Origin: Gammaproteobacteria bacterium
GTDB taxonomy: Bacteria > Pseudomonadota > Gammaproteobacteria > Pseudomonadales > Pseudohongiellaceae
DNA length: 33,497 bases
Assembly (NCBI GenBank): GCA_007571115.1
Contig: RKSA01000255.1
Coordinates: 1 to 33,497 of the forward strand
Reading direction: 5' to 3'
Position numbers and translations under genes: made by a program. Positions 27,692 through 28,941 of this stretch are shown here, one piece after another. Every line of letters starts with the position of its first letter. Positions within the stretch are counted from its first letter, which is position 1. The notes under the pieces are model-generated. The model saw only the letters and a program-made list of their open reading frames with translations, was not told the origin of the DNA and did not search any database.

Positions 27692-28009
27692 ATGCCGACC
27701 GATATCGTGCTATTGCAAACCGTTGTCGCCACCTGTTTTGCCGCGTCATTGATTCCGCGCGCCGTCTGGCGCCGGCACAGCGGCGAATACGTGGGCTTCC
27801 AGAGCAACCTGGCACTGCTGTATTTCGTGTTCCTGCTCAGTTTTTTCGCTGGCGGCGTCGCGGTCAACTACGACGCCTGGGAAACGCTGCTCAGAGCCGG
27901 GCTGATGGTGGCAACAACCTTCCTGATCGGCTGGCTGGTCGCGGTAATCGCCTATTGGCGCCGCTACCGAACCCGCCCCCGCAAGGGCACGCCTCCAGCC
28001 AGCTCCTGA
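27692..28009 (+). CDS. Small integral membrane protein, about 3 TM (105 aa), hypothetical
   Basis: GGGAGA lies 5 nt upstream of the ATG. Third codon positions are GC-rich, as in neighbouring genes. The hydrophobic segments are VLLQTVVATCFAASLI, LALLYFVFLLSFFAGGVAV and LMVATTFLIGWLVAVIAYW, and the tail is basic. Confidence 0.6.
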   Translation: MPTDIVLLQTVVATCFAASLIPRAVWRRHSGEYVGFQSNLALLYFVFLLSFFAGGVAVNYDAWETLLRAGLMVATTFLIGWLVAVIAYWRRYRTRPRKGTPPASS

Positions 28010-28086
28010 GCGGCTCGTGGCCATGGCCCGTCGCCCCGAAAACATCCTTCGCCAAAATTATGCAAATCCCTCTCACCATACCTATC

Positions 28087-28116
28087 TTGCCTGCTGCACG
28101 ATTCATTCACTTCAAT
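28087..28116 (+). promoter_or_regulatory. Candidate sigma70 promoter TTGCCT-N18-TTCAAT for the double-glycine peptide gene
   Basis: The hexamers are at 28087-28092 and 28111-28116, in a locally AT-rich stretch. The hexamer match is weak and the predicted leader is short. Confidence 0.25.
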
Positions 28117-28133
28117 TTGACAGGAGCAAGATC

Positions 28134-28406
28134 ATGAGAGAACTTACGATTGATGAGATGGAAAGAGTTGACGGCGGCTTTGGCCCATTCGGTGCCCTAA
28201 CCGGAGCGGCGGCAGGTGCGCTAGGCGCGGCGGTGTCTGGAGGAGGGTTCAAGGAAATCCTCGTGGGAGCGATGTTCGGGGCAGTTGGCGGATTCTTTCT
28301 GGGAGTCGCTGGCGTGAGCTCGGGCTTCACCCGCGCGATGTTTACCGGATATTCACTGCAAACTTCAGCCATCGGGGCGCGAGCCGTCCATGAAATGACG
28401 CAGTAG
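28134..28406 (+). CDS. Double-glycine-leader peptide precursor, class II microcin/bacteriocin-like (90 aa: 15-aa leader plus 75-aa core)
   Basis: AGGAG lies 7 nt upstream of the ATG. The leader MRELTIDEMERVDGG matches the GG-leader pattern in length and in conserved positions (compare the colicin V leader MRTLTLNELDSVSGG). The core has 17 Gly in 75 aa, six GxxxG spacings and no Cys, and is largely hydrophobic. Codons in the leader are A/T-ending (AGA x2, CTT, ATT, GAT, GTT), unlike the surrounding genes. Confidence 0.75.
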   Translation: MRELTIDEMERVDGGFGPFGALTGAAAGALGAAVSGGGFKEILVGAMFGAVGGFFLGVAGVSSGFTRAMFTGYSLQTSAIGARAVHEMTQ

Positions 28407-28525
28407 CCCTGCGCGACCGACTTTTCACTGGCTGGATACTGGCCCCGGATGCTGATCGGATTCTGTCAGTCATGATTCAGCCTTGCCGAAGAGTCTGGTA
28501 GTGGATATCAAGAGCCCTGTGTTTT

Positions 28526-28559
28526 CCAAGGGCGGCACCACGCTGCCCTTGGTTTTTTT
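28526..28559 (+). terminator. Rho-independent terminator downstream of the double-glycine peptide gene
   Basis: The 8-bp GC-rich stem pairs CCAAGGGC (28526-28533) with GCCCTTGG (28545-28552). The loop is 11 nt and is followed by TTTTTTT (28553-28559). The T-run is present only on the + strand. Confidence 0.75.
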
Positions 28560-28587
28560 GATCCGTGACTATCGAAGGTTAACGAAC

Positions 28588-28941
28588 ATGAGTTTTTATG
28601 AACTGCTGTTGCTTTGCCCGAATATCTTCCTCTCGGTCGGCGTGGTGCCAACGACGATCTATGACAGGGAAACCGGGCAGTACAAGGGATTCGCGAACAT
28701 CCCCACCGTCTTTTGGCTGTTGGTGGCTGCCGTTGCCGCGTGGCTGGTGATCCTGGCTTCGGAAGCGCCGAGGGTTGCGCCTTGGCAATATTCGATCATG
28801 TCCATAGTGCTTGTCGCCCTCGGTGCCCGTTTCGTGGTTGAAGGGCTGCACGAGCACCTGCACGGAACCTGGCTGCACAAGGAAGGCATCTGGCTACTGC
28901 CAAAAAAAGCTGACGCTGGCGATCAGTCGTCGTCTTCGTGA
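28588..28941 (+). CDS. Small integral membrane protein, about 3 TM (117 aa); candidate immunity protein
   Basis: The ATG at 28588 has GAAGG 9 nt upstream. The TM candidates are LLLLCPNIFLSVGVV, IPTVFWLLVAAVAAWLVILA and YSIMSIVLVALGARFVV. The longer TTG-initiated ORF from 28483 would run through the terminator. The 3' end overlaps the convergent cytochrome c' gene by 19 nt. Confidence 0.5.
   Translation: MSFYELLLLCPNIFLSVGVVPTTIYDRETGQYKGFANIPTVFWLLVAAVAAWLVILASEAPRVAPWQYSIMSIVLVALGARFVVEGLHEHLHGTWLHKEGIWLLPKKADAGDQSSSS

Follow-up and report, generated by a model that had tools for sequence, protein, structure and literature searches.

Organization of the locus

The window analysed here is the whole of contig RKSA01000255.1 (33,497 nucleotides; assembly GCA_007571115.1) from a gammaproteobacterium of the family Pseudohongiellaceae. 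Our subject is a cassette of three small genes within it, in which a gene for a glycine-rich peptide with a double-glycine (GG) leader is flanked by genes for two small membrane proteins (Table 1). The peptide gene runs from an ATG at 28134 to the stop codon at 28406 on the forward strand and encodes a precursor of 90 amino acids (aa), which consists of MRELTIDEMERVDGG followed by the core FGPFGALTG...HEMTQ. A spacer of 7 nt separates this ATG from the ribosome-binding site AGGAG (28122-28126). The initial annotation, made from the letters of the window alone, had proposed this open reading frame (ORF) with a good ribosome-binding site and, on either side of it, small membrane proteins of 105 and 117 aa with three hydrophobic segments each; all of this was borne out.

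Table 1. Position of the cassette features in the window and the basis of each assignment.
Feature	Position	Strand	Basis
Three-helix membrane protein, 105 aa, divergent paralogue of the downstream family; candidate second or orphan immunity protein	27692..28009	+	Hidden Markov model, motif, hydrophobic segments
Upstream region travelling with the peptide gene	28043..28133	+	A/T-rich block, possible -35/-10, ribosome-binding site
Double-glycine leader, 15 codons, MRELTIDEMERVDGG	28134..28178	+	Best-conserved part of the peptide family
Glycine-zipper core, 75 aa, plus stop codon	28179..28406	+	Composition, motifs, AlphaFold2 model, TIGR03949 match
Intrinsic-terminator-like hairpin, 11 pairs, 5-nt loop, T7 run	28526..28559	+	Terminator scan
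Three-helix membrane protein, 117 aa, conserved partner of the peptide; candidate cognate immunity protein	28588..28941	+	Homology, pairing

The core likewise agrees with its first description as a cysteine-free segment of 75 aa with 23% glycine: it contains 17 glycines (22.7%), no cysteine and all six of the GxxxG motifs that had been listed, a count that marginally exceeds the expectation from composition (shuffle p = 0.087). Its grand average of hydropathy (GRAVY) is 0.79 and its isoelectric point 8.6, and the predicted mature peptide would have a monoisotopic mass of 7229.64 Da. An AlphaFold2 model obtained with 21 family members, with a mean predicted local distance difference test score (pLDDT) of 88, places three helices in the core (residues 16-34, 39-61 and 64-89) and a short helix in the leader (residues 6-13). 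Foldseek found no meaningful match to this model in the PDB (best E 1.2).

The peptide gene is real and kept under purifying selection, and is not a chance ORF. Seven independent contigs of the species carry it in identical form. Comparison with the closest homologue (locus L003; L numbers denote the loci fetched from other contigs) gives a proportion of nonsynonymous differences (pN) of 0.22 and of synonymous differences (pS) of 0.72 for the whole gene, and a pN of 0.04 and a pS of 0.77 for the leader. The window peptide ends in ...HEMTQ and is without the tail of about nine residues (EQRRYRYNPS) of its closest relatives.

The peptide gene is preceded by a block of about 90 bp that is partly conserved among non-syntenic loci (the window, L003, L016, L022 and L023). 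Within this block, ATGCAA (28060-28065) and TATCTT (28083-28088) are a possible -35 and -10 element, respectively; a consensus scan for sigma-70 promoters found none. The hairpin separates the peptide gene from the partner gene and is kept in L001 and L003 with one compensatory change from G-C to A-T. Wherever the gap between peptide and partner measured at least 120 bp (nine of nine examined), it holds a GC-rich hairpin with a T run, the sequences being unrelated, and in lineages of lower G+C the two genes are tightly packed. An Rfam search found nothing in the window. A 73-aa ORF upstream of the peptide in L001 and L003 was considered as a gene and rejected, being dissimilar to the 105-aa protein, evolving with a dN/dS of about 0.5 and overlying the conserved upstream block.

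The peptide family

An exhaustive search of 1.84 billion representative proteins gathered the peptide family in 31 clusters at E ≤1e-3, nearly all of them proteins of 85-100 aa that share the N-terminus; a word-indexed search returned just two homologues (66-69% identity). The family alignment shows no variation at M1, L4, G14 and G15 and a conservation of at least 90% at E8 and V12, in line with the initial proposal that the leader fits the double-glycine pattern. The zipper glycines G20, G24, G28, G49 and G57 are conserved to at least 90% in alignment A2, as is G53 in alignment A6. The core is otherwise variable, retaining across the family chiefly its glycines and a GFFGG-type centre. Whereas homologues with a conserved core and a lost leader or GG site had initially been named as the sign that would count against a bacteriocin, the reverse was found, leader and GG being the best-conserved part.

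Against the NCBIfam model TIGR03949 (class IIb bacteriocin, lactobin A/cerein 7B), whose cut-off is 21.5 bits, the window peptide scores 24.0 (E 2.4e-5). The model also matches 12 of the 23 relatives scanned (E ≤0.01), and some relatives are already named after it in NCBI and JGI records. Because this cut-off is passed, annotation pipelines can name the peptide, and the initial expectation that automated annotation would easily miss it did not hold. The family might already feature in recent surveys of class II microcins. At least two loci were confirmed in a genome-collection scan with the family alignment A4, and a tblastn search of plasmids with the peptide gave no match, possibly owing to low-complexity filtering. 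It was further observed that 27 of 49 family peptides end in serine, often as Gly-Ser or Ser-Ser, which is far above chance.

The partner protein and its upstream paralogue

Gene callers place the start of the downstream gene at 28501 (146 aa), reading across the terminator hairpin, but its homologues and the ribosome-binding site GAAGG at 28574-28578 favour the ATG at 28588 (117 aa). The 117-aa protein is 51% identical over 109 aa to a 109-aa protein that follows the closest peptide homologues. The partner family, assembled from the small proteins that neighbour family peptides in other contigs, comprises proteins of about 100-134 aa with the signature [IVF]P.A[IV][RWY]....G.Y.GF between the first two helices, a region that takes the form of a beta-hairpin in a low-confidence single-sequence model of the 117-aa protein (pLDDT 63). 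To judge from these comparisons, the partners appear to constitute a previously undescribed family of three-helix membrane proteins. Pfam and NCBIfam returned nothing for either membrane protein, a word-indexed search with the 117-aa protein found only the protein itself, and a metagenome scan with the partner family yielded no confirmed locus.

In order to survey the pairing, the window and 38 fetched loci were searched with purpose-built profiles. A member of the partner family directly follows the peptide in every distinct locus but one (about 20 loci), the exception being the locus represented by L020 and L021, in which some other small membrane protein takes its place. In L020 (G+C 41%) this is a 107-aa two-helix protein at 10323-10646, after which come HipBA genes. 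In L024 (10852-11861) an ORF of 90 aa and a toxin-antitoxin pair of the PIN/Phd type come after the peptide and its partner.

The upstream 105-aa protein also carries the partner-family signature, and a hidden Markov model (HMM) of nine partners, built without it, gives it 37 bits (E 1.4e-10). None of the other six-frame ORFs of the window outside the cassette obtained a score. The genes for the 105-aa and 117-aa proteins are therefore paralogues. Both proteins are under purifying selection. The 105-aa protein is conserved like a housekeeping gene (75-79% identity to its orthologues in two complete Pseudohongiella chromosomes, dN/dS about 0.19), whereas the 117-aa protein diverges fast alongside the peptide. 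The initial annotation had seen the format of immunity proteins in both; the downstream protein is the conserved partner of the peptide and a candidate for this role, and the two paralogues behave differently.

Chromosomal site and divergence

The window is otherwise ordinary chromosome. It encodes hsdR, DAHP synthase, GST, a histidine kinase, parE/parC, monomeric isocitrate dehydrogenase, EF-P with a lysyl-tRNA-synthetase-like protein and a radical-SAM protein, a GGDEF-EAL protein, a CitMHS transporter, an M10 peptidase, cytochrome c, cytochrome c', an ABC-2 transporter and an M13 peptidase. It matches a contig of assembly GCA_007571235.1 and is syntenic with the chromosomes of two complete Pseudohongiella sp. 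genomes (OX638341.1 and OZ220475.1), the shared order being cytochrome c, 105-aa gene, peptide and partner, followed in L022 (OX638341.1) by cytochrome c' and the ABC-2 transporter. In at least eight lineages of marine Pseudomonadales the cassette occupies this slot between the two cytochrome genes (c and c'), and the G+C of the other lineages with the cassette in this slot ranges from 46 to 62%.

Overall, identity in the flanking genes spans 72-82% across the Pseudohongiella group (three genomes). When the window is set against the two Pseudohongiella chromosomes, it amounts to 72-74% for cytochrome c, 75-79% for the 105-aa protein, 74% for cytochrome c' and 79% for the ABC-2 permease, and falls to 38-52% for the peptide and 28-42% for its downstream partner. 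Fast divergence of a presumed toxin and its antidote within a conserved frame would fit the pattern of strain-against-strain weapons.

The arrangement of the pair varies among loci. Within the cytochrome slot, L018 and L025 hold a peptide-partner-peptide-partner array and L014 has the order peptide-partner-partner, the second partner being without a peptide of its own. The pair is located elsewhere in L001, L003, L016, L020 and L024, and L016 carries two peptide-partner pairs at its other site. In L022 the peptide gene has ATT (10001-10003) where others have ATG, behind the same ribosome-binding site; either this codon is a weak start, or the putative toxin gene has been inactivated while the immunity gene beside it was retained.

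Two further features of the window concern other genes. Between the M10 peptidase and cytochrome c lies a conserved hypothetical gene (25922-26632, reverse strand) whose product carries the motif CRYRS..GNCFRL and has no Pfam match; its counterpart in Pseudohongiella is found at L023:7558-8058. A strongly skewed segment at 3501-4000 (GC skew -0.20, AT skew -0.32) coincides with a coiled-coil-like ORF of 226 aa at 3355-4035 (reverse strand), for which matches of the apolipoprotein type were all below threshold.

No exporter is encoded near the cassette in the window

Pfam scans of the large ORFs of the window, which reaches 27.9 kb upstream and 5.1 kb downstream, revealed neither a Peptidase_C39/ABC_membrane exporter nor a HlyD-type protein. 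A tblastn search with the N-terminus of the peptidase-containing ABC transporter (PCAT) of L003 and its membrane fusion protein gave no match in the window or the other loci. Both methods agree with the initial statement that the window holds no C39 ABC exporter and no membrane fusion protein.

Among about 13 distinct loci with long flanks only L003, from the genome of the 66%-identical homologue, has a PCAT and a membrane fusion protein, situated about 8 kb from the peptide. The N-terminus of this PCAT contains the catalytic motifs QAEANECGLACL, DHFVV and HDP, with Cys, His and Asp intact. The two genes (L003:1-3332, reverse strand) appear to share an operon with genes for a small acyl carrier protein and for an LpxL-like acyltransferase of 296 aa (23.3 bits, cut-off 22.3), a gene content which hints at an acylated substrate. 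Because 12 of the roughly 13 loci with long flanks are without a PCAT, the lack of an adjacent exporter is the norm of the family and not a peculiarity of the window.

Two other GG-leader peptides, with unrelated cores that are not glycine zippers, occupy the same cytochrome slot. These are L014:9715-9909, where MRELTDNELQHVSGG precedes YNQFGKTCQG..., and L022:10950-11120, where MRELDQEEMGAISGG precedes YSPSGLPG.... That unrelated cores sit here behind almost identical leaders points to one exporter, with its genes elsewhere, that reads all of these leaders. The ABC-2 transporter of the window (29523-31410, reverse strand) was considered for this role and rejected: it is not a transporter of the required type, lacks a C39 domain and forms part of the conserved backbone of the site, and the pair occurs without it in L003, L016, L020 and L024.

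Comparison with known systems

The closest characterised Gram-negative system, likened here by description, is Cdz of Caulobacter crescentus. Its peptides CdzC (86 aa) and CdzD (84 aa) have GG-ending leaders and hydrophobic glycine zippers; exported by a type I system, they remain bound to the cell surface and kill neighbours by contact, while immunity is due to CdzI, an inner-membrane protein with three helices (PMC5380434). A survey of Cdz-like loci sought proteins of 60-151 aa whose leader ends in G[G/A/S] and which have one or two zippers bounded but not broken by proline or charged residues and a short C-terminal region that is polar or charged, and required type I secretion genes (CdzAB homologues) within 10 kb (PMC5380434).

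The window peptide is 90 aa long, its leader ends in GG, its zippers extend from G20 to G38 between P18 and K40/E41 and from G45 to G64 between E41 and R67, and its polar tail is RAMFTGYSLQTSAIGARAVHEMTQ. Secretion genes are absent from the window and, among the roughly 13 long-flank loci, present only in L003. Because the survey required such genes within 10 kb, loci of the present type will have dropped out of it. Both systems thus combine a small Gram-negative precursor (84-86 aa there, 90 aa here) bearing a GG leader, zippers and a polar tail with a three-helix membrane protein encoded downstream in the same orientation (CdzI there, the 117-aa protein here), both are without modification genes, and in both the toxin, or here the putative toxin, is strongly variable among related strains. 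They differ in that Caulobacter has an obligatory pair of peptides, a core with 75% Gly, Ala, Val and Ile and an island location, whereas the present locus has one peptide, a core with 52% of these residues and a conserved chromosomal site, with CdzAB-type genes not within 10 kb.

Microcin V (CvaC, Cvi, CvaA, CvaB) shares with the cassette a 15-residue double-glycine leader of like pattern, MRTLTLNELDSVSGG in CvaC, as well as a core rich in glycine and alanine, which is membrane-active there and presumably here, and the format of a small membrane immunity protein, here a candidate; it is exported by a PCAT, a membrane fusion protein and TolC. The present core differs in being free of cysteine, the exporter genes lie outside the locus, and the host is a marine member of the Pseudomonadales with the genes on the chromosome. 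As regards class IIa microcins in general, MRELTIDEMERVDGG is a double-glycine leader of about 15 residues, but the MccV and Bacteriocin_IIc profiles score below their cut-offs and no clustered exporter is found in the window.

The TIGR03949 family has in common with the peptide a GG leader followed by a GxxxG-rich helix. It consists, however, of Gram-positive two-peptide bacteriocins, whereas the present peptide is about twice the length of the 45-position model and has a Gram-negative host. The class IIb definition asks for a second, complementary peptide; searching the window by regular expression and by HMM yields just one GG-leader peptide, and in the loci with two peptides (L016, L018 and L025) each peptide has its own partner gene.

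Siderophore microcins (MccE492, MccH47) show the combination of a GG leader, a glycine-rich, cysteine-free core of 70-90 aa and a membrane immunity protein, and carry the siderophore on their C-terminal serine. The frequent serine-ending C-termini of the family resemble this arrangement, but the window peptide, ending in ...HEMTQ, differs. No glycosyltransferase, esterase or MceIJ-type gene appears in the Pfam tables of any locus, and the NCBIfam model for E492 is touched by just 1 of the 23 relatives (E = 0.008). By these signs the window peptide is not a siderophore microcin. Judged by its leader, core and partner, we would class it as a double-glycine-leader, glycine-zipper bacteriocin with a membrane immunity protein, which is a known kind, in an architecture where the exporter is unlinked.

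Proposed function and alternatives

We posit that the cassette probably encodes an exported, membrane-active antibacterial peptide, microcin-like or Cdz-like, together with its immunity protein, the exporter being encoded elsewhere. According to this model, the leader of the 90-aa precursor would be recognised by a PCAT which acts with a membrane fusion protein and an outer-membrane channel from another part of the genome, and the precursor would be cut after Gly15 and exported. The 75-aa mature peptide, helical, zipper-bearing, mildly basic and very hydrophobic, would then insert into the inner membrane of unprotected related cells and render it leaky, while the producer would be protected by the three-helix 117-aa protein encoded just downstream. 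The hairpin between the two genes may allow the peptide transcript to be made in excess of, or separately from, that of the immunity gene. The upstream 105-aa paralogue may be a conserved second member of the immunity family which confers extra or cross immunity.

Several results weigh against this proposal. The window, one contig of 33.5 kb from a fragmented assembly, contains no exporter, and a PCAT within 10 kb is present in only one of about 13 distinct loci (flanks of about 9-10 kb on each side). The divergence of peptide and partner is weakly correlated (Mantel r = 0.29, p about 0.045, 9 pairs), and the partner of L022 is 42-52% identical to those of the window and L003 where its peptide core reaches just 27-28%. 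The profile searches that the initial annotation had suggested were divided: TIGR03949 lies above its cut-off, with a match that spans only residues 3-37 (the leader and the first zipper), while Pfam PF17508 (MccV; 15.1 bits against 27) and PF10439 (Bacteriocin_IIc; 11.0 bits against 27.1) remain below theirs. Finally, nothing in Pfam or NCBIfam ties the partner family to a named immunity family.

A less probable alternative is that the exported peptide aggregates on the surface of the producer and kills by contact in the manner of CdzC and CdzD, with the 117-aa protein in the role of CdzI. The sequence features sought by the Cdz-like survey, four in all, are present in the window peptide, the sizes of CdzC and CdzD and the three-helix build of CdzI are close to what is seen here, and the hosts are marine, an environment in which the Cdz authors argue that a diffusible toxin is of little use (PMC5380434). 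Yet the core is poorer in Gly, Ala, Val and Ile than that of CdzC/D, a single peptide is encoded where Caulobacter requires two, type I secretion genes are not found within 10 kb, and the site is a conserved chromosomal one whereas Cdz-like loci are described as horizontally acquired islands. We regard it as improbable that the peptide stays in the cell, either as the subunit of a membrane complex with its partner or as half of a toxin-antitoxin-like pair, its apparent leader being a conserved cytoplasmic N-terminus. Such a role would agree with the 12 long-flank loci that have no exporter in view, with the tight pairing with a membrane protein and with the HipBA and PIN/Phd genes that adjoin the pair in L020 and L024. 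It would leave unexplained why the N-terminus agrees with the double-glycine consensus at each position and is conserved more strongly than any other segment, why one leader precedes very dissimilar cores at this site, and why the closest homologue has a catalytic PCAT nearby in its genome; that the pair diverges fast between conserved flanking genes also suits an inter-strain weapon better than a housekeeping complex.

Equally hard to favour is the notion of a decaying remnant which has lost its exporter and in which only the immunity genes are still useful, against the toxins of neighbours. The unlinked and unproven exporter, the lack of the C-terminal tail, the ATT start in L022 and the partner gene without its own peptide in L014 are all compatible with decay. 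The peptide gene itself, however, is intact with a strong ribosome-binding site and identical on the seven contigs, and pN is well below pS, most strongly so in the leader, which without an exporter would be useless. That the peptide is an exported signal of the pheromone type and not a toxin seems very unlikely. Quorum-sensing peptides of Gram-positive bacteria also use GG leaders, but a hydrophobic three-helix glycine-zipper core of 75 aa (GRAVY as given above) does not resemble known pheromones, none of the loci pairs the peptide with a sensor kinase or a response regulator, and the obligatory partner is a small membrane protein.

Returning to the exported antibacterial peptide, a wider scenario may be sketched, which we offer as a rather doubtful extension. 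The slot between the cytochrome genes would be inherited vertically in the Pseudohongiella group while toxins and immunity genes in it are swapped and diversified, a single unlinked PCAT would serve all GG-leader peptides, killing would be by contact as in Cdz, and the 105-aa paralogue would act as a general immunity or docking protein that is not cognate to any one peptide.

Implications

For genome mining the lesson is a useful one, although no surprise in principle. Searches which demand an exporter within 10 kb, as the Cdz-like survey did, miss whole families of this type, in which the pair has a site of its own. The practical gain is modest and consists of one candidate peptide of narrow spectrum and an improved rule by which such loci can be found. 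If our reading is true, it would add an immunity-protein family with a clear signature, and toxins with a double-glycine leader and a glycine zipper, together with their membrane immunity proteins, would extend into little-studied marine Gammaproteobacteria.

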